From sequence record NC_047979.1: a stretch of 64,000 nt of DNA; one strand, given 5' to 3'. The notes beneath the pieces are model-generated. The model was not told the DNA's origin. It worked only from the letters and a program-made list of their open reading frames with translations, and did no database searches. This document shows, piece after piece, positions 6,689 through 44,862 of the stretch. Positions within the stretch are counted from its first letter, which is position 1, and each line of letters opens with the position of its first letter. This stretch comes from Escherichia phage Gostya9. Both the position numbers and the translations under genes were made by a program.

Positions 6689-6886
6689 TTAAGTTCTCAG
6701 CAGAATATCTATTGAGGTACTTAGTTCATTATAATTGAAGGGCCGATTTGGATTTGAGGTTACAATTTTCCACGCTAGGGTAGTCTTAGGACTATCTTCC
6801 CCTTCCTTACGTGTAATCATATTAGCAGCGCTCAATGAGGTATGATGAATTTTAGTTTTTCGGCGTAGATGTACAACGTTTCCCAT
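6689..6886 (-). CDS. Small basic hypothetical protein (about 65 aa)
   Basis: ATG at 6886 lies 1 nt after the phoH stop with a ggggaagg RBS; followed by a terminator. The track ORF 6689-6955 overlaps phoH and is probably over-extended. Confidence 0.3.
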   Translation of the reverse strand: MGNVVHLRRKTKIHHTSLSAANMITRKEGEDSPKTTLAWKIVTSNPNRPFNYNELSTSIDILLRT

Positions 6887-6887
6887 A

Positions 6888-7649
6888 CTACACCTTCCCC
6901 ATGTCTTTAAAAATATCGTAGAATGCTTTAGACTCAGCAGAACGAACGTTATCAATCAATTCGATCATTGAGAATGGGGCATTTTCATACTTCTCATAAA
7001 CTTCCATAAGAAGTGCTAGACCTGAGTCACCTTTAATGTCTTTTTGGGCTATATCTCCACAGATAATTAAACGGCAGTCTTGTCCTACACGAGTTAGGAG
7101 ACAAACCATTGCCTCAACGGAAATATTCTGAGCTTCATCGACAATTACATAGGAGTTGTTGAAAGTTCTGCCACGAGCATGTTCTATAGCCAAAAATTTA
7201 ATTTTCTGACGTTCGACATATCCCTTATAGGCGTGATCACCGATGGCCCATTTCATACCATCAGCTATTGGCTCCAACCAAGGCTCTAGCTTTTCTGCTA
7301 GATCACCAGGAAGCATACCAAGAGACTTACCTAGAGGTTCATTAGGACGGACGAGAATCACTTGCTCAATATCTGAGTGAGTGTCTACGAGTTCCTGAGC
7401 TGCAAGAACGGACGGGATAAAGGTTTTACCAGTACCTGGCTCACCGATACCCACAGTCACTGTGTTGTTCTTGATCATATTGATATATGATTTTTGCTCG
7501 CGGTTTTTACCTACTAGGGATTTAGCAACTGGGTTGACGTAATCATTAGAAAAATCAGCCTGAATTACGTTACTCTCATATTTGTTGCCACGCTTTCTTG
7601 AACCATTGCGGTTCTCTCTTTTTTGACGTGCTTTTCCCATAAATAACAC
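6888..7649 (-). CDS. phoH: PhoH-like ATPase
   Basis: Walker A GIGEPGTGKTF and Walker B IVDEAQN; typical PhoH length. Confidence 0.9.
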   Translation of the reverse strand: MLFMGKARQKRENRNGSRKRGNKYESNVIQADFSNDYVNPVAKSLVGKNREQKSYINMIKNNTVTVGIGEPGTGKTFIPSVLAAQELVDTHSDIEQVILVRPNEPLGKSLGMLPGDLAEKLEPWLEPIADGMKWAIGDHAYKGYVERQKIKFLAIEHARGRTFNNSYVIVDEAQNISVEAMVCLLTRVGQDCRLIICGDIAQKDIKGDSGLALLMEVYEKYENAPFSMIELIDNVRSAESKAFYDIFKDMGKV

Positions 7650-7716
7650 TCCTATAGTGTACTTCGCTTCTAACAGAGGATCAACAAAAAGATCTTGTTT
7701 ATCAACTTACAAATAT

Positions 7717-36323: not shown

Positions 36324-36358
36324 AAAACCCCAGTGGACAAAATCCACTGGGGTTTTAT
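36324..36358. terminator. Bidirectional terminator where the early (plus) and late (minus) blocks converge
   Basis: 14-bp perfect stem aaaaccccagtgga / tccactggggtttt with loop caaaa; A-run on one side and T-run on the other. Confidence 0.7.
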
Positions 36359-36377: not shown

Positions 36378-36575
36378 CTATGCTAAGTTCTCTATATTAA
36401 CAAGTTTATTTACAAAGGCTTTAAGTTCTTCAGCGAAGTTACCGCGACCACCCAAACCGTTACCGATCCAGGAACCAATTAAACCACCGATCGCACCACC
36501 GATACCAGCCGCACCAGCTTCACCGCCGAAACCGTCGCCACCGAGATTAGTAGGTAAAAGAGTCGTGTCAGACAT
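36378..36575 (-). CDS. Small glycine-rich protein (about 65 aa)
   Basis: ATG at 36575 with a ggag RBS 8 nt upstream: MSDTTLLPTNLGGDGFGGEAGAAGIGGAIGGLIGSWIGNGLGGRGNFAEELKAFVNKLVNIENLA. The track ORF extends upstream to 36698 without an RBS. Confidence 0.45.
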   Translation of the reverse strand: MSDTTLLPTNLGGDGFGGEAGAAGIGGAIGGLIGSWIGNGLGGRGNFAEELKAFVNKLVNIENLA

Positions 36576-36796
36576 AGGAAAATCTCCATATATGGATTTG
36601 TTAAGCGGATGTAACCAACTGGTTACGCTGGTAAGTATACTCGTTAACATATTATTTACCATGATATGCGTGTAAATAAATTGTAAATAGTTTGGCATTG
36701 GTACTCTTATAATGCAATGGACGTCACGACTTGAACAAAATGAGGAAGCTATGTTTAAACGCGGTGCGGTCGCAGGTAAGGTGAGAAAGTAACAAC

Positions 36797-36820
36797 TAAA
36801 AAAGGAGCCAAACGGCTCCT
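36797..36820 (-). terminator. Rho-independent terminator after the tail-fibre gene
   Basis: On the minus strand: aaggagcc-gttt-ggctcctt followed by ttttttag. Confidence 0.6.
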
Positions 36821-36832
36821 TAATTATTGTGG

Positions 36833-39502
36833 TTATGGCAGATCGTTGTTAACCACATTGCCCTTCAACGCAGCTATCTCCGCTTTCAAACTATCAATTT
36901 CTGCTTTGAGCGCTTGAGTGGCACCCATCAAGTCCATAATAATAGGGTTAGTATCAATTGAAGGTCTGTCTCGGGTCTTCTGTGAAACAATTTTCTTCTC
37001 GACTTCACGACGAATAAATTTATGTTCAATGCGTTGTTCTTTGATTTGTTCTGTAATACCAGTCTCGGGGTCGGTATGATCTACAGTAACCTCTACAGGT
37101 ACATCCTCATATATATCCTTATAAACATCCTCGTATACATCCTCATAAATCTCTTCATTGTGCTTCACATATTGTGGGGTGACTTTCTCCGATTCTTCTG
37201 CAATAATACCAAATCTTATTCTTTCTTGTTCATCGTCCTTATAAATAAAAGTGACCATGCGTTGTGCCATGATGCGGTTTAAAGCATCAATAGGATTACC
37301 GTCATTGATCTCCTTTTTATATGCTAAGCCCGATGTTCCTTGCAGTGCAAGGGTTCCGGCAGCACTCGGAAGTCTAATCCAATGCTCAGGCGAACCTGCT
37401 ACGGTATATGTTTGAAATCCATAGCTCCCTACAGTTTCGCTAAACCCCACACGGTTTCGAATAACTCCATTTGCTGCTAAGTTACAAACATAAGACGCTG
37501 CACCATTGGATTTAAACGTTGCAGCGTCGGTTCCTGCGTCCCCGCCACCCGCTGTAATTCGCCCGGTAATATTGGTAGAGAACGCAATTGCAATCCCAGT
37601 ACCCGCACCCCCAATGGCTAACGGAGTAGAATGATACGAGCCATCCTCATTGTAGTAGTAGAATGCGTAGCCCCCGCTGATAGCAAGCCCTGATCGCCAT
37701 CTTACAGTAGATGGACTGGAAGGTCCGGTATAAGCTGTGTAAGCCGAACCCGGTCCCGTCGCTCTAATTAATACGCTGTCTTGACTATAACCCCCAGTTG
37801 TCCTGAGCTGACCAACTTCCCCAAATGAACTAGTCTTGTGAGCTGGTAGCGTGACTGTTTTAGCTGAAGCGCTGTAGTTAAAGACAACATTAGTGTTACC
37901 AGTATCGTTCTCCTGGAGTCGTATGTTACCGCCATCCATAACCATAACATAGCCAGTTACATCATCTGGGGCGCCAACTTCTTCAAATTTAATTGCTGGG
38001 TTAACACTCTTGATTAAAAGAGGATTACCAGCGTTCGCCCCAAATTCTGCATTAAGGTTAAACTTCTGCTTTTTGGTAAAAGTATTTTCAGCATCAAGTT
38101 TAGCTAGGCTGGAGGGGTCCAGTGAATCCGCATACCCTTTCGCGCGGTTAGCTTCCTCTGTTGCTAGGGTGGCTTTCTGCCCTGCGGTTGCAGCGCTGCC
38201 TGCGGCTGCTGTAGCTTGTTCCACCGCTTCGGTTGCACTAGCACCAGCTTGAGCTGCAGAAGCTGCGGCAGCGTCTTTTAGCGGGGTTATTGTATTAATT
38301 GCTTCCGTCTTAGCGGTGTTGACCGCAGCAACACCCGATGTTTTAACTGTATTAACTTCTTCGACTGCGTCGGCTTTAGCTATTGCGACTTCAGTCAACG
38401 CGGAGTCTTTAATTGCTTGAGTATCTGTTTTTAACTGAGTAACGTCAGCTTTAAGCTGGGTAACTGTAGTTACAGCAGCACTAGCTGTGCTAGCAGATCC
38501 CGCCGCGTCAGCTTGTGCTTGGCTAGCAGCGTCTTCACTAGCTTTTGCGTTAGTTTCTGAAGTTTTTGCAGCAGTTTCTGAGTTTTTTGCTGATTCAGCA
38601 TCAGCAGCAGCTTGTGTAGCGAATATTTCTGCCTCATCCCTAAATCCTTTAGAGTCAGAAGCAGCACTAGCACTATTAGCAGCATTAATCTCAGAAGTTT
38701 TAGCCGCAGAAGCAGATGCAGCAGCATTAGTTTCTGAGATGTTTGCTGCGGAGGCCGCGGCAGCTGCAGTAGTTTCGCTAGCGTTTGCATTAGTTTCTGA
38801 AGTTTTAGCTGCCAGTTCACTAGCCTTTGCATTGGTTTCTGAAGTTTTAGCTGCGGTTTCACTATTAGCAGCCGCAGTAGCAGAAGAAGCAGACTGAGTT
38901 GCAGATTGCTGAGAAGATGCTGCAGAGATTTCCGCTTCATTTTCAGAGTCCTTAGCATTTAGCTCTGACTGCTTAGCATTAGTTTCTGATGTTTTAGCTG
39001 CTGAAGCAGAAGCAGCCGCAGCAGTTTTACTACTATTAGCGTTGGTCTCAGAAGTTCTAGCTGCGGTTTCACTAGCTTTTGCGTTAGTTTCTGAAGTTTT
39101 AGCTGCGGTTTCACTAGCTTTTGCGTTAGTTTCTGAAGTTTTAGCTGCGATTTCACTAGCTTTTGCATTAGTTTCTGAAGTTTTAGCAGCGGTTTTACTA
39201 TTGGCAGAAGCAGTAGCAGAAGAAGCAGACTGAGCTGCGGATTGCTGAGAAGATGCCGCAGAAATTTCTGCGGCATCTTCCGAATCTTTAGCATTTAGCT
39301 CTGACTGTTTTGCATTAATTTCAGATTGCTTAGCTGCTGCAGCAGATGCTCTAGAAGACCCTATTGCAGAGGTTAGCTCTCCTGCAGTAATAGAGCTAAT
39401 TGTGTTTCCCAGAACTACGGTATACTTAGGGTATTTACTTGCAGTTATACTATTCTGGTCCATAGTGACCATTTGTTGTAGAATTATTTTAGTTATAGCC
39501 AT
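36833..39502 (-). CDS. Tail fibre protein with repeat-rich shaft and C-terminal intramolecular-chaperone-like domain
   Basis: N-terminal third made of 14-aa repeats (AAKTSETNAKASE-like); beta-rich Gly/Ser/Thr middle; C-terminal about 150 aa resembles the self-cleaving chaperone domain of phage fibres; final coiled coil ALKAEIDSLKAEIAALK. Confidence 0.75.
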   Translation of the reverse strand: MAITKIILQQMVTMDQNSITASKYPKYTVVLGNTISSITAGELTSAIGSSRASAAAAKQSEINAKQSELNAKDSEDAAEISAASSQQSAAQSASSATASANSKTAAKTSETNAKASEIAAKTSETNAKASETAAKTSETNAKASETAARTSETNANSSKTAAAASASAAKTSETNAKQSELNAKDSENEAEISAASSQQSATQSASSATAAANSETAAKTSETNAKASELAAKTSETNANASETTAAAAASAANISETNAAASASAAKTSEINAANSASAASDSKGFRDEAEIFATQAAADAESAKNSETAAKTSETNAKASEDAASQAQADAAGSASTASAAVTTVTQLKADVTQLKTDTQAIKDSALTEVAIAKADAVEEVNTVKTSGVAAVNTAKTEAINTITPLKDAAAASAAQAGASATEAVEQATAAAGSAATAGQKATLATEEANRAKGYADSLDPSSLAKLDAENTFTKKQKFNLNAEFGANAGNPLLIKSVNPAIKFEEVGAPDDVTGYVMVMDGGNIRLQENDTGNTNVVFNYSASAKTVTLPAHKTSSFGEVGQLRTTGGYSQDSVLIRATGPGSAYTAYTGPSSPSTVRWRSGLAISGGYAFYYYNEDGSYHSTPLAIGGAGTGIAIAFSTNITGRITAGGGDAGTDAATFKSNGAASYVCNLAANGVIRNRVGFSETVGSYGFQTYTVAGSPEHWIRLPSAAGTLALQGTSGLAYKKEINDGNPIDALNRIMAQRMVTFIYKDDEQERIRFGIIAEESEKVTPQYVKHNEEIYEDVYEDVYKDIYEDVPVEVTVDHTDPETGITEQIKEQRIEHKFIRREVEKKIVSQKTRDRPSIDTNPIIMDLMGATQALKAEIDSLKAEIAALKGNVVNNDLP
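39059..39184 (-). repeat. Three tandem 42-nt repeats inside the tail-fibre gene
   Basis: Plus-strand unit agctgcggtttcactagcttttgcgttagtttctgaagtttt repeated 3 times with 1-3 substitutions; a larger degenerate duplication spans about 38470-39350. Confidence 0.85.
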
Positions 39503-39924
39503 TATTGAGTCACCCCATCGCTAATATAAATTTTGCCTTCCATAATACGGAAAGAACTAGCAGCATTACCAACAGCTGTTCTAGTAATAATTACATCATA
39601 GTACCCAGCTAATCTCTGTCTGGGGTTATATCTATCTCTTTCTTTGGATGCTTTGGAAGCAATAGTAGCTACAGCACTAACAGGTAGACTTATAGAGGCT
39701 ACCCCCTGTGCAGCATCAACAATAGATGTAGTAAAAGATGCTAAAGTTTCAGCCCCATCTTCAAAGCTACTTTTAATACTTCCTCTAAGAGAAAAGCCAG
39801 TAAGGTCTACTGGTGTAGATGTAGGGGGATAAACACTATCATCTACATCCATAAATTGCATAAGTAAACCATAAGGTACGTTCTCATCTACTACTAAATC
39901 AATAACTCTATTTTCTGTACTCAT
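39502..39924 (-). CDS. Small tail/collar-associated structural protein (140 aa)
   Basis: Position between the baseplate-protein gene and the tail-fibre gene; stop overlaps the fibre start. Confidence 0.5.
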
Positions 39925-39928
39925 TATT

Positions 39929-42013
39929 TTACCTTATATGGATATACCCGTTTTGCAGGTCTATCTTCATTTTGTAAGATCCCTCTGGGTTAGAGGATAG
40001 TGCTGCTGCACGATCATATATAATATTTACACCTATTTGTGATAAGAAAGCATTATTAGCAACAATTTTACTAGCAGTTACCGTACCATTAACTATCATA
40101 TCACCATGTAAAACCATTGCAGGGCTAGCCCATGCTGAACCATTCCACTGCCTAGTAAACGCTGTTCCAGGTGCATCACTTTTATACTCAGTCAATACAT
40201 CATACTTAACAGGGCCACTACCGAAGTTAGATGTAAAAAACGAATTGGCTTGAGAATCATTCCATGCCGTTAAATTAGTAATAGCAACGGAGTACATACC
40301 GGGACCACGTTGTCCATTAGCACCTGGACTACCATTGGCCCCTGGCCTACCATCAACCCCTTCTGTACCACTCCATTGAACTACATCTGACCAACTGGTT
40401 CCAGATACTAACTGATTAGTAACAGGGTCTAAAGTACCAGTAGAACAATAAATATTCTGAGTATTAGATGTTCTATTCGGTGGAGTTTTAGACCAACCTG
40501 AAGGTGGGTATGCAGGACTTGTTGGTTTAGCAGGCAATGAAGTACCTAGAATATAGATAAATACTGTCTGCTTACCTTGTATACCTGTTGCTATATCGAT
40601 GTCACCGTTAGGTGTACCAATTACAACCCCACTAGAGATTCTTAACGTATCCCCATCATAACGAATGTACTGTGTAGCATTACCAATGTCCAGTTTTGGT
40701 TTAGCAGTAGCGTTATCCATGCCCATCCAAATGCCGGATTTTGTGTCTCCCCAAGTTTTGCCTTGAGTATAGATTGCTGGGTTGTCTTGACCAGTTAAGT
40801 TAGTCATTACAAAGTTCGCAGCATTAATGGTTTTAGTTATTACACTTCCATCAACGTTAACTATCTTTTTAATAGGGTCAAAAGATATTGGTGCTTTTCC
40901 TTCTGCATCTAGAAGACCTATATTAATAGCACCGGTGGCAGCATCTATTAAGAAGGTTTGTTTCCAGGTCGATCCATCTTTAATTTTACCCTTAATGTGC
41001 GCGTAATTTACTTCGATACCAGTTTCATTAACAAAACTATTATCTAGTGGAGTACTCTCATTTAATATAAATGTCTGTACTGCGGAATCAGTAACATCTT
41101 GGGCATCTGGTCCCCAGGCAATAGATGACACTTTAAATTTATGTTCTACTTTCCACGGGAATGAGATAATTGTTGCAGCTTGAGCAGCACCAACGTTAAT
41201 CTTTTGAGCTTTAGTCCAACCACTACGTGCGAACTCTGCTGAGTCTATATAAGAAACAACAAACTCTCTAACGTTAGCACCAGCACCACGTTCCCAGTCC
41301 CATTCTACTCTAACATCATATCGTTCCTTACCATCTGCAATTCGTGCAGCTTTAAACACGATATTAACAGGAGCTGTAGGAGGCACAAAGTTATATTTAA
41401 CTTCAAAGACGGTAGGATACTCAAAATACCCTGAGGAATCAACTGTTACCCCGTCAGGTAGGGTTACTTGTCCTGAGATCCTTACTTTATAGAATCCAAT
41501 AGGTACTCCACCAAACATAATAGTTGGCATCAAAGCACCCACGTAATATTTAATCCAAGGACTATCTGCACTAGAATTATCTTTTAACTCTATAGTACAA
41601 TAATCGGCCTCCCCGGTAGTATCTATATAAACTATTGGAGAACCAACACCAACGTCCACCGGTTCTGACTCGCATCGAGCACCCGTGATTCTAGGTGCTG
41701 ATTTCATTCTAAAAGTTTGTTTGTCAGATAAATTAATACCTATCTGAGCATTAAGTAGTTCAGAGTCTATTATAGAATCATAAAATGCACCCTGAACTTC
41801 ATAAGTTGTCGTAGGTTTTAAGTTATTAATAGTTACAGAGAATGTATCAACACCAGTAAAATCCCTACGAGTGATGTTGTTACCTTCTTTAAGCCAGAAG
41901 GATCTACCAATAACGTCGTAATCCGAGTAAATGGAGTGCTGGATATACGCTAAGGTATATCCAGTCAGTACGCTATTTAAGACCATCTTGGCTGGTGCAT
42001 TATTTGAAATCAT
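39929..42013 (-). CDS. Baseplate/tail-tip structural protein (pb4-like position)
   Basis: 694 aa from ATG 42013 (TAATG overlap with the upstream stop, ggag RBS); beta-rich; position downstream of the pb3-like gene. Confidence 0.6.
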
Positions 42014-44862
42014 TAAATGGATGCCCACTCCACAGACTGTTCTCCATCATCTCCTTCAGCTCTAATACGAAAATACAATTTTCTATTTATACCTAGAGCA
42101 CCGCTGTTCTGGAGAGCAAAGTCTGCCTTATTATATATTAATAAATAGTCATAAGTATACTGATTTTCAATACGTACACTTCTTAACATCCTATTTTGCG
42201 AATCGTGTATTTCAAGTGTATAAAATATACTATCTATTATATCTTCTTCAGGTATTCTATCCCAAGCTAGTTTCACATCTGGGCCAACAAACTCAGTTAC
42301 ATCTCCAGAAGCAGTATTAGTTACCCTAAAATTAGATACTACACTAAGGTTTTTAGCAGAATTAAGTTCTATAGACAGAGTCACCGGGGAACTTCTTCTA
42401 CCATTAATATCTACTGCCCTTATCTCAAATATAGCCAGACCTGCTGGTTCCCCAATTATCTCTTGGATCATACGTTCGTTAGGATTATTCTCTAACTGTT
42501 GTACTATGTAAGGTTCAGCATGACCGGAATGCACGATAGAGTAATAAACTACGTTATTAGTTAAGCTTGGAAGCCAGGATAATTCACCATTTTTTCCTAT
42601 AGAACCAACTAAACCACCAGGTGTAGGAGTATACTTAAAATCTCTAGGTGGAAGGACATTGTTACTAATATCTGGTATATCATTACCACTATTATCTACT
42701 TGATCAGAGTTGATGAATACATCTTCTCCATACTCCTGTAGAGTAACATTTATCTTACCTTCTCTAGAGTTTTCCACTTCGTCTACTAGGAAGTACTTCC
42801 TATCCCACCCATAACGGCCATATGTGAATGCAATAGCATCGTTAGGTTCAATACCAATGAATTGATACGGCAATGAGAAAGAAAGTGTTCTTGAGTATCT
42901 GGATTTCTTAAGTTCTCTATCAGCAAAACTTCTTGCAGTATAGTAATTAGTAATATTAGCAAAAGATAGTTGTAATTTTTTATCTAGGTTCTTGTCCTGT
43001 TCCTTATACTGGGAGTTATAGAATGTAATGGAATTAGTTTTCCAGCTAAGGGCTGGATCTACGATAGATGCTTGAACTGAGTTGAATTTATTTCTACCAG
43101 TAGTATCTGATAGCTCCAAATCACCGTAAGTATCTAGAAAATTAATCTCTAACGGAGTATTAGAGTATTTTTCTACAGTAACCCTGTACTGGCCAGATAA
43201 GTTGTTAATAGCCCCACCAAAGGATTCTAATATACCTTGAACGTTTTTAAATACTGATTCAGAAGTGTCTAGTATGGTGTTTAGTTGAACTATTTGACGA
43301 TGCTCGGAGTAAGAATCTTCCCAACCAACGTAGCGCCAGTAGGGTTGCCAGCCAACTTGGTAAGATTCATCAATTATATCTAGAATCTTAGCTTCGGCGA
43401 TTACCTGCTGCAGCGGGAACTGATCAATGGTGATATTAGCCCCGTAACGTTCGGAAGTCAAATAATCCATTAACTGCCAGATACCGTTTAAGCTAGTTTT
43501 GTTGGCCACTACAGAACCGTCAGAATGGTAGACTTTTACTTTTTTACCTTGAATTTCAGCACTAACTTCAGGAATATCAGTTCTGTTTTCATTAATAGTA
43601 AAACGCACTACGGCATAAGCGGTATCTAGTAGCTTATATCTGGCGTCCCAGTACTCCGGTCCATTGCCATTCATATTCTGAAGGTAGAACCCACGTTCTC
43701 TAGCTATATCTACTAGTACTTCAGAAGCCGTTTGATTAGACTTTCCGTGGTAAGTCCAAATCCTTATATCACCATTTCCATCATTATACCTATACTCTTG
43801 ACCATGAACGGATGGACTACTAGAGGAAATTCCAGATGCTATCCTCTGCATGGTATCTCCTACTATTTTTTTAGTACCGAAGCAGGTTCTAGCGGAGCTA
43901 TCATTATCGTCTACACAAATCATAGGGTTATCACCAAAGGAGAAATCAAGAAAACCATCAATCTCTCCCTCAGCAAAGGCGTATACGACATAAACTATGT
44001 TGGGATTGTGTAGTTCTGTATCAGCAAAAATAGGTATCCCCGGTATTTTCTGTACACCATAAACTACTGGTATATATTTAGCAGCAAGGTTAAAATCTAT
44101 ATCTACTTCCTTAGTAACAGTTTCATAGTATTTTTTAAGGCTGTAGCTTCTAGATAAACCAAATAATTTTTTCTTTGATTTTAGCTTGTATCTTTCTTCC
44201 TGTACTTGGTACTTTGCCAGTATAGATATACTTTTATTAGCATGAAAGAACCCATAGTCTTCTTGGTACTCAGGTCTTTTAGCACCGTTAGATGGTACTA
44301 GCTGTCCAGCTACAACTTCAAGCCCCCTATGAGAAGCATCATCAGTATATCTGCCATTAACCCTATCAAAGTCATAGAATTGGTTAGAACAATTCCAGGT
44401 AATTGTAGAAGTTCCTACTCCAGAGGTACTAATGTTATCTTTAATGCCTCCTCCAGTAATCCTTCCCCTAAAGTACAGTAAAGGACCATTTGTATCTGGG
44501 TCTACTGGCAGAATAGAACCATCTTCAGTAATAATTGCTTGATGAATTGATACGGTTCTATCTAAGAAGGACACGCCATTTTGTACTAGTTTTAGCACTT
44601 CATCCTGTGCTGTGCCAGTAATGGTAAAAGATAGACTTCCAATAGATAAATCTCTGTTTTGTTTGTGTGGGCTAATAGACTTAACTTTACCCGCTTGGTA
44701 TAGGATGCCATTATATATTACATCTCTAAAATAATCAGTTAAATAAATAAAAGCAGTACTAGTACCAGTAGAGCCAGGTAACTCTAGAGAAATTAGACTA
44801 GCAGTTTTTATTCTGCTATTATTTTTTAAGTAGTTTCTAGCACTATCTAGTATTTTTTTCAT
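42013..44862 (-). CDS. Baseplate hub / tail-tip protein (pb3-like)
   Basis: 949-aa structural protein between the Dit-like and pb4-like genes; size and position match the T5 baseplate hub as I recall it. Confidence 0.65.
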   Translation of the reverse strand: MKKILDSARNYLKNNSRIKTASLISLELPGSTGTSTAFIYLTDYFRDVIYNGILYQAGKVKSISPHKQNRDLSIGSLSFTITGTAQDEVLKLVQNGVSFLDRTVSIHQAIITEDGSILPVDPDTNGPLLYFRGRITGGGIKDNISTSGVGTSTITWNCSNQFYDFDRVNGRYTDDASHRGLEVVAGQLVPSNGAKRPEYQEDYGFFHANKSISILAKYQVQEERYKLKSKKKLFGLSRSYSLKKYYETVTKEVDIDFNLAAKYIPVVYGVQKIPGIPIFADTELHNPNIVYVVYAFAEGEIDGFLDFSFGDNPMICVDDNDSSARTCFGTKKIVGDTMQRIASGISSSSPSVHGQEYRYNDGNGDIRIWTYHGKSNQTASEVLVDIARERGFYLQNMNGNGPEYWDARYKLLDTAYAVVRFTINENRTDIPEVSAEIQGKKVKVYHSDGSVVANKTSLNGIWQLMDYLTSERYGANITIDQFPLQQVIAEAKILDIIDESYQVGWQPYWRYVGWEDSYSEHRQIVQLNTILDTSESVFKNVQGILESFGGAINNLSGQYRVTVEKYSNTPLEINFLDTYGDLELSDTTGRNKFNSVQASIVDPALSWKTNSITFYNSQYKEQDKNLDKKLQLSFANITNYYTARSFADRELKKSRYSRTLSFSLPYQFIGIEPNDAIAFTYGRYGWDRKYFLVDEVENSREGKINVTLQEYGEDVFINSDQVDNSGNDIPDISNNVLPPRDFKYTPTPGGLVGSIGKNGELSWLPSLTNNVVYYSIVHSGHAEPYIVQQLENNPNERMIQEIIGEPAGLAIFEIRAVDINGRRSSPVTLSIELNSAKNLSVVSNFRVTNTASGDVTEFVGPDVKLAWDRIPEEDIIDSIFYTLEIHDSQNRMLRSVRIENQYTYDYLLIYNKADFALQNSGALGINRKLYFRIRAEGDDGEQSVEWASI

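Follow-up and report, generated by a model that had tools for sequence, protein, structure and literature searches.

The lateral tail fibre gene and its junctions

The window analysed here is the whole of a 64,000-nt stretch of Escherichia phage Gostya9 (sequence record NC_047979.1), and the element under study is the open reading frame (ORF) at 36833..39502 on its minus strand. This lateral tail fibre gene (ltf) is a single intact ORF with an ATG start that encodes 889 amino acids (aa), as an earlier note made from the sequence alone had it, and lies in the ltf position of T5. With a probability of about 0.85, we consider the fibre of this Tequintavirus-like phage to be a two-parent chimera, in which a T5-type N-terminal part is combined with a distal module from Seuratvirus. 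The Seuratvirus-derived distal module is the main feature of the locus and had escaped the earlier note. The gene order matches that of T5 (pb3, pb4, collar, ltf, terminator, T5.132, dut, D15), and the segment pb3-pb4-collar-ltf is the same in T5, HK6 and MET_P1_100_107. The collar gene (LtfC), which belongs to the PHROG collar proteins that attach the L-shaped fibre, is located directly upstream of the fibre ORF on the same strand. Further upstream, a 699-aa protein matches the full set of four Pfam domains found in the straight fibre pb4 of T5, and downstream the dUTPase and the D15 flap endonuclease are encoded on the opposite strand. The 20 kb around the gene are 88-91% identical to many Tequintavirus genomes, with around 12-16% unmatched. 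This gene order and identity assign the window to a phage of the T5 family and identify the ORF as the gene for its lateral tail fibre. The fibre thus belongs to the T5-family lateral fibres by its anchor and position, not by its tip. The features of the locus are the following.

36833..39502, minus strand: lateral (L-shaped-type) tail fibre, probably chimeric, 889 aa; an ORF flanked by the collar gene and dut/D15, as ltf is in T5
39502..39924, minus strand: collar protein p132 / LtfC, 140 aa, the fibre holder (Pfam LtfC, E 2.9e-15; PHROG collar tail protein)
36432..~38500, minus strand: block of probable Seuratvirus origin by DNA identity, extending from the distal shaft through tip and chaperone to the donor terminator and a 5' piece of the gene that follows in the donor
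38473..38538, minus strand: left junction (gene nt ~965-1030) in the motif KQAQAxAAxSANTA, which is common to both parents (three-way alignment)
36802..36821, minus strand: terminator-like hairpin just past the fibre stop, within the imported block
36378..36698, minus strand: 106-aa fusion ORF, the putative recombination scar, which runs in frame from a 5' piece of the Seuratvirus downstream gene into the old ltf 3' end
36378..36431, minus strand: remnant of the ancestral T5-type ltf with its last 17 codons, EELKAFVNKLVNIENLA and stop, aligning with the MET_P1_100_107 ltf 3' end (EELKVLVNKLINTDNLA and stop) and downstream DNA
36324..36356, no strand assigned: bidirectional terminator of the T5 backbone, where T5 homology restarts (hairpin; T5 annotation)

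Residues 1 to ~325 of the fibre are T5-type and comprise the collar anchor and a heptad shaft, while residues ~345-889 are Seuratvirus-type. At the DNA level, nt 1-1032 of the gene are collinear with ltf of MET_P1_100_107 (92% identity over nt 1-960), and nt 969-2670 share 95-96% identity with the side tail fibre gene of SLUR25, SLUR63 and Skure (megablast). The latter phages are 59-kb siphoviruses (Seuratvirus, Queuovirinae) that are unrelated to T5. The complete block measures ~2.07 kb; over ~2.05 kb its DNA identity amounts to 96.1% with SLUR25 and 95.9% with Skure, and the similarity runs beyond the fibre stop codon into the next Seuratvirus gene. Compared with the nearest T5-like phages, the backbone flanking the block reaches only 86-94% identity. 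The guanine-cytosine (GC) content of the block is 45.4% versus 39.6% for the whole window and is among the highest values in the window; the Skure genome has a GC content of 44.6% (PMC7552041). At the protein level, the distal 540 aa are 93% identical to the Seuratvirus side tail fibre. BLASTP against T5 pb1 aligns the N-terminal region only (aa 1-236 at 65%, with a second alignment that is due to an internal duplication) and detects no similarity to a T5 pb1-type tip beyond ~aa 220-350. An hhalign comparison of a tip/chaperone profile with T5 pb1 aa 900-1396 returned a probability of 0.1, albeit in a weak test with a single sequence as the target. Conversely, the prophage tail fibre N-terminal domain (PF08400) that covers aa 1-134 of the SLUR25 protein is absent from the window fibre. 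The Seuratvirus identity, taken together with the lack of pb1 similarity, indicates that the difference from T5 reflects module replacement rather than divergence or deletion.

The earlier note had suggested a fibre different from, and much shorter than, that of T5. The difference is upheld for the distal part, which has no detectable pb1 similarity, but the N-terminus is T5-type and the tip is Seuratvirus-derived. The T5 length of about 1400 aa given there is accurate (pb1 counts 1396 aa), and the window fibre is indeed shorter with its 889 aa. This shortness is nevertheless ordinary, as the T5-like fibres encountered in the analysis measure 767, 885, 979, 1076 and 1396 aa. Shortening of a T5 fibre by deletion was rejected, given that over its distal 540 aa the fibre is unlike pb1 and shares 93% identity with a Seuratvirus protein. 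The ltf locus of the T5 family is known to be hypervariable, with high variability apart from its 5' end (PMC8594841).

Both ends of the block can be located. In a three-way alignment, the window is MET_P1-like up to gene nt ~965, shows mixed sites up to nt ~1030 and is SLUR25-like thereafter. The parental types are ~70% alike in this stretch, which gives the left junction the look of a crossover in similar coiled-coil sequence. The reading frame remains intact across it. Its motif recurs in only one of the 120 homologues that were compared (1/120), namely the SLUR63/SLUR25 cluster, and for this reason the idea that it acts as a universal linker was not adopted. The right junction falls at 36431/36432, where the window is SLUR25-like up to ...GGTAACTTCGCTG and then continues as the T5-type ltf remnant EELKAFVNKLVNIENLA with its stop. 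The two sequences overlap by only 1-3 nt, which marks the right end as an illegitimate join. HK6 carries the identical right junction and ltf 3' remnant, whereas neither IMG/VR nor the JGI metagenomes contain the exact 25-nt right-junction sequence, and further carriers did not turn up.

The donor's downstream gene is complete in SLUR25 (276 aa), while the window keeps a 5' stub only. In SLUR25 (6839-7669 of the SLUR25 locus sequence), this gene encodes a protein with a Gly-rich N-terminal part, a Cys-rich C-terminus and no Pfam match. Near-full-length homologues at 93-95% occur in SLUR75, SA80RD, SA126VB and Dru_SM1, ~60-kb phages that are not among the tip matches. Homologues are spread over Seuratvirus and, at greater distance, Nonagvirus and other small siphoviruses; they are also found in 9NA-like and several T1-like (~50 kb) phages and, distantly, in some T5-like Salmonella phages. 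Two BASEL records label a homologue as 'putative sugar-binding protein'. In HK6, the stretch that matches the 106-aa scar ORF has a 1-nt deletion and is frameshifted, and the comparison of both sequences suggests a decaying rather than a functional ORF.

A few further observations concern the surroundings. The collar gene is a single intact 140-aa ORF in the window, HK6 and MET_P1, and is split in the T5 RefSeq record (T5.136, T5.135); the DT57C paper blames a frameshift error in the T5 sequence for this split. In pb4 (39929-42028), a collagen-like Gly-X-Y run near aa 554-575 is two triplets shorter than in HK6. Judged from HK6, translation of pb4 probably begins at an ATG (MISNNAPAK) located five codons downstream of the listed GTG. 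An ARAGORN scan of the whole 64 kb (1-64000) gave neither tRNA nor tmRNA genes.

Shaft, tip and chaperone

The fibre can be divided into an anchor, a shaft, a tip and a chaperone, as listed below from the N- to the C-terminus, with the repeats placed in the shaft.

39386..39502, minus strand: N-terminal collar anchor (aa 1-39) of the T5 pb1 / DT57C LtfA type, with a near residue-for-residue alignment to both
38066..39385, minus strand: alpha-helical shaft (~aa 40-479) with an unbroken heptad register from aa 57 to ~280 (lag-7 identity; AlphaFold2 helices)
38772..39349, minus strand: span of both copies of a 242-nt internal duplication (copies 38772-39013 and 39108-39349, 87% identical)
39024..39200, minus strand: 42-nt tandem array of 4.2 copies, with three 14-aa units (aa 113-154) and flanks (Tandem Repeats Finder)
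38772..38864, minus strand: second 42-nt array of 2.2 copies (Tandem Repeats Finder)
37334..38065, minus strand: beta-rich distal tip (~aa 480-723) between shaft and chaperone, the presumed receptor-binding domain
36836..37333, minus strand: intramolecular chaperone (aa 724-889) with predicted self-cleavage at T723/S724 and K729 as partner (Pfam PF13884; S/K pair)
36992..37126, minus strand: 45-aa chaperone insertion relative to DT57C LtfA (aa 793-837), beside a four-fold YEDV repeat with a 12-nt period at 37101-37149

The shaft had been described in the earlier note as a series of near-identical 14-aa repeats, encoded in part by three tandem 42-nt DNA repeats plus a larger internal duplication. 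The DNA repeats are real. The array at 39024-39200 (90% matches, score 268) contains 4.2 copies, and the 14-aa unit AKASExAA(K/R)TSETN occurs three times in full at aa 113-154, with a fourth unit that starts at aa 225. The duplication is equally well defined: aa 57-112 and aa 169-224 correspond to each other over 242 nt at 87% identity and an offset of 336 nt. The 14-aa units, however, are not the basic repeat. Residue identity reaches 0.449 at lag 7 and 0.457 at lag 14, versus 0.174 +/- 0.021 (maximum 0.24) for 1000 shuffles, and AKxSE heptads keep one register from aa 57 to ~280. The 14-aa unit was therefore rejected as the basic repeat on account of the lag-7 identity and the single heptad register. 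The primary repeat is the seven-residue coiled-coil heptad and the 14-aa unit consists of two heptads.

This assignment agrees with structural data. A single-sequence AlphaFold2 (AF2) monomer (mean predicted local distance difference test, pLDDT, of 67) leaves aa 1-39 unstructured and places helices at aa 40-200, 205-281, 290-386, 392-460 and 463-479, separated by short breaks (201-204, 282-289, 387-391, 461-462). In the cryo-electron microscopy structure of DT57C, LtfA contributes strands to the LtfC ring with the residues that precede T40, and at T40 a helix begins that is part of a three-helix coiled coil (PMC10713586). The heptad period, the AF2 helices and the DT57C structure together identify the repeats as heptads of a coiled-coil shaft. 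As in the homologous LtfA of DT57C (PMC10713586), the shaft would be a trimeric coiled coil and the fibre a homotrimer that is mounted on a dodecameric LtfC ring.

The repeats had also been put forward as a source of length variation, and the number of 14-aa units in the two arrays does differ among relatives: 3+1 in the window, 2+2 in MET_P1, 1+3 in HK6 and 0 in T5. Such differences fit slippage or unequal recombination, as far as a comparison between relatives rather than within a population can indicate. A second small repeat polymorphism is located in the distal shaft, where an 11-aa unit TSGVAAVNTAK (VNTxKT repeat; 38300-38360, aa ~372-392) is present in the window and SLUR25 and missing from HK6.

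The C-terminus had been noted as resembling a self-cleaving intramolecular chaperone, which a Pfam profile search bears out: Peptidase_S74 (PF13884) matches aa 729-780 with an E-value of 3.1e-7 and 31 bits, above the cut-off (gathering score) of 22 bits. By extrapolation, position 1 of the Pfam model corresponds to S724, which is S1264 in T5 pb1, where K1269 follows five residues on. Among 32 aligned homologues, S724 and K729 hardly vary and T723 does not vary at all. The catalytic role assigned to such a serine/lysine pair goes back to work on the K1F endosialidase and T5 pb1. Self-cleavage is predicted between T723 and S724, which would yield a mature fibre of 723 aa. The best Foldseek match is 3gw6, an endosialidase chaperone (E 1.3e-3, probability 0.99), but its template modelling (TM) scores are only 0.13-0.27 with a poor query model, and the other Foldseek matches, to OspA, are uninformative. 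Among the sequences of the Protein Data Bank (PDB), a phmmer search with the chaperone region matched DT57C LtfA only. As T5 pb1 has a Peptidase_S74 chaperone as well, the domain does not set the fibre apart from T5. Within the chaperone, a four-fold YEDV/YKDI repeat and the insertion lie inside 36992-37149 (aa 786-837). AF2 folds roughly aa 779-849 into a long beta-hairpin (pLDDT ~88), the sole confident part of a model of aa 441-889.

Origin of the fibre and alternative explanations

The probable graft is recent and crosses family borders, and it has preserved both scars. In the proposed course of events, an older T5-type ltf would have exchanged nearly all of its distal part for the Seuratvirus module. 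One crossover would have taken place in the coiled-coil stretch that is ~70% alike in both parents. At the other end, an illegitimate join with 1-3 nt of microhomology would have fused the stub of the donor's downstream gene to the last 17 ltf codons. In the resulting protein, the first 39 residues would anchor the fibre in the LtfC (p132) collar and the helix of AKxSExx heptads from residue 40 would serve as a shaft, to which the imported residues would add more helical shaft, the beta-rich tip and the Peptidase_S74 chaperone. The chaperone would drive trimer folding and subsequently cleave itself off at T723/S724. The tip would then bind a surface glycan, such as O-antigen or the core of the lipopolysaccharide (LPS), in a reversible manner that speeds up adsorption, as T5-family fibres do.

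The direction of the transfer, from Seuratvirus to the T5-like phage, is derived from the stub of the donor gene next to the stub of ltf and from the Seuratvirus-like GC content of the block. Identity alone gives no direction, and a T5-like phage could in principle have donated the distal module to a Seuratvirus ancestor, a route for which one might cite the variability of Seuratvirus fibre alleles and the restriction of the tip to three Seuratvirus records. Yet it is in the T5-like genome that the gene downstream of the fibre is truncated to a 5' piece and runs into the final 17 codons of a T5-type ltf; SLUR25 has this gene complete, and tip-less ~60-kb phages have near-full-length homologues. 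Moreover, no T5 backbone sequence is found on either side of the Seuratvirus locus, and the GC content of the block fits Seuratvirus instead of the T5 backbone (PMC7552041). We rejected this reverse transfer as highly improbable on the basis of the two stubs in the window and the Seuratvirus flanks without T5 sequence. An even lower probability, close to nil, is given to an assembly artefact in which reads of a T5-like and a Seuratvirus phage from one sample were joined in a contig. Sewage commonly contains both phage types, and both infect E. coli (PMC8594841), but the frame is intact at the left junction, both junctions are sensibly placed, and the same architecture and right junction recur at 6% divergence in HK6, an independent isolate from China. 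The identical right junction in this independent isolate rules out an assembly chimera and favours one ancestral event. It is also what makes it unlikely, though less so than the reverse transfer, that the window phage and HK6 gained or refreshed the module separately from co-infecting Seuratvirus phages, as independent illegitimate joins at the same base, with the same ltf remnant, are very improbable. Separate gain would account for the distances within the block, where the window is nearer to SLUR25 (96.1%) than to HK6 (94.0%) and where 76 sites group the window with SLUR25, 41 group SLUR25 with HK6 and 33 group the window with HK6. A faster rate in HK6 or later gene conversion in the block would, however, produce the same distances.

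The reading implied by the earlier note, an ordinary T5 fibre that has diverged and shortened and that is notable for its slippage-prone 14-aa repeats, is refuted as the main account of the locus and considered very unlikely. The repeats are real and vary in number (3+1, 2+2, 1+3 and 0 in the window, MET_P1, HK6 and T5, respectively), and the N-terminus and the class of chaperone are common to T5. It leaves unexplained, however, that the distal 540 aa are 93% identical to Seuratvirus without detectable similarity to pb1, and the repeat has the 7-aa period that is expected for a coiled coil. The preferred explanation, a single graft of a Seuratvirus module onto a T5-type fibre, has difficulties of its own. 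The block distances just described are unexpected under one transfer followed by clock-like divergence, although unequal rates or later gene conversion could explain them. The left junction is diffuse, with ~65 nt of mixed sites that leave the exact crossover point unfixed. The AF2 monomer of aa 441-889 is poor (mean pLDDT 54.6, predicted TM-score 0.24), and its tip strands are of low confidence, such that the fold of the tip is unclassifiable. Finally, E. coli K-12 makes no O-antigen. Since Skure was isolated on this strain (PMC7552041), a target other than O-antigen, in the LPS core or elsewhere, is possible.

Function and comparison with known fibres

Judging by its position, anchor and domain plan, the protein is an adsorption fibre. 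The distal tip of T5 pb1 binds polymannose O-antigen. As the tip sequence of the window fibre is unrelated to that of T5, its specificity is likely different, as the earlier note had suggested for the polysaccharide that it recognizes. In the T5 family, lateral fibres bind the O-antigen reversibly as a primary receptor and are dispensable on rough strains (PMC8594841, PMC10713586). Neither the chimera nor the HK6 fibre was found described in the literature that was searched, with incomplete coverage, nor was a receptor for the Skure/SLUR25 fibre. The choice of surface glycans open to a T5-like phage is set largely by its fibre tip, and a new tip allele on a T5 chassis consequently points to a changed host range, with implications for phage typing and the design of phage therapy. 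In addition, both scars of a cross-family module swap are preserved, and the join in the coiled coil represents a naturally validated in-frame graft point that may serve as a template for engineering. The event itself is ordinary, as module exchange between phages and hypervariable fibre loci are already well documented (PMC8594841, PMC11990801), including the horizontal movement of receptor-binding domains between phage groups and morphotypes (PMC11990801); it leaves current understanding unchanged. A more speculative thought is that the Ala/Ser-rich heptad shaft acts as a recombination adaptor: a low-complexity coiled coil that recurs across families would permit in-frame grafting of tips, and the arrays would tune fibre length. 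We regard this as rather doubtful, given that the motif at the left junction recurs in only 1 of 120 homologues; if true, the locus would be a case caught in the act with both junctions preserved.

The tip (aa 470-725) is rare. At an identity of at least 80%, it occurs in 4 of 50,697 phage records (SLUR25, SLUR63, Skure and HK6), and IMG/VR contains no close relative of it. In a collection of 5.8 billion proteins, the SLUR63/SLUR25 cluster is the sole close one, followed by sequences at 56% and 50% and then by Dhillonvirus-type fibres at 32-35%. The exact fibre protein is absent from the public gene index. Several of the Dhillonvirus-type fibres, ~600 aa in length, retain their 32-35% identity over 93-98% of a 449-aa query that spans the end of the distal shaft, the tip and the chaperone. 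These fibres of Dhillonvirus/Drexlerviridae phages (Oekolampad, EE09, Sodalis phage SO-1; BASEL, PMC11990801) follow the same plan of coiled coil, tip and chaperone, but have different N-terminal anchors and are only distant relatives of the tip. At least 10 types of N-terminus are represented among 120 homologues.

The donor type is exemplified by the 725-aa side tail fibre of SLUR25, SLUR63 and Skure, which shares the distal module, the chaperone with the YEDV insertion and the terminator with the window. It starts with a lambda Stf-type anchor (PF08400, aa 1-134) and a short Ala/Ser-rich stretch, where the window fibre has a T5 collar anchor and ~280 aa of heptad shaft. The best stand-in for the recipient allele is the ltf of Salmonella phage MET_P1_100_107 (979 aa, Tequintavirus). 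It is collinear over nt 1-1032, including the internal duplication, and the remnant at 36378-36431 corresponds to its 3' end and the DNA that follows. It differs entirely from the window fibre in distal shaft, tip and chaperone, and its repeat units number 2+2.

HK6 (PP724615, Tequintavirus) has the same chimeric build, right junction, ltf remnant, tip and chaperone, and its imported block is 94% identical at the DNA level. Its fibre differs in length (885 aa), in repeat units (1+3 versus 3+1), in the 11 aa missing from the distal shaft and in the frameshifted scar ORF. The earlier note had named collinear fibres of similar length in related phages as an argument against its own reading; HK6 alone has such a fibre, and matches to the other T5-like records were confined to the 5' part of the gene. 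In the GenBank record of HK6, no gene is annotated across the fibre locus despite an intact 885-aa ORF between the collar gene and dut (PP724615.1 ~71352-74009, reverse strand). A near-identical allele is thus already present in GenBank without annotation, and a variation in fibre length of 767-1396 aa is normal in the family.

T5 pb1 (1396 aa) and DT57C LtfA (1076 aa; PDB 8HQZ) are further close counterparts. T5 lacks the internal duplication and the 14-aa units of the window, and its mature fibre is longer (1263 aa compared to a predicted 723 aa). DT57C possesses an LtfB branch gene, whereas the window has no LtfB-like second fibre gene, and its fibre should therefore be unbranched. On the other hand, the window fibre resembles both proteins in its genome position, collar partner, N-terminal anchor and start of the coiled coil, and all three have AKxSExx heptads and a C-terminal chaperone of the self-cleaving type with a Ser/Lys pair (S1264/K1269 in T5).

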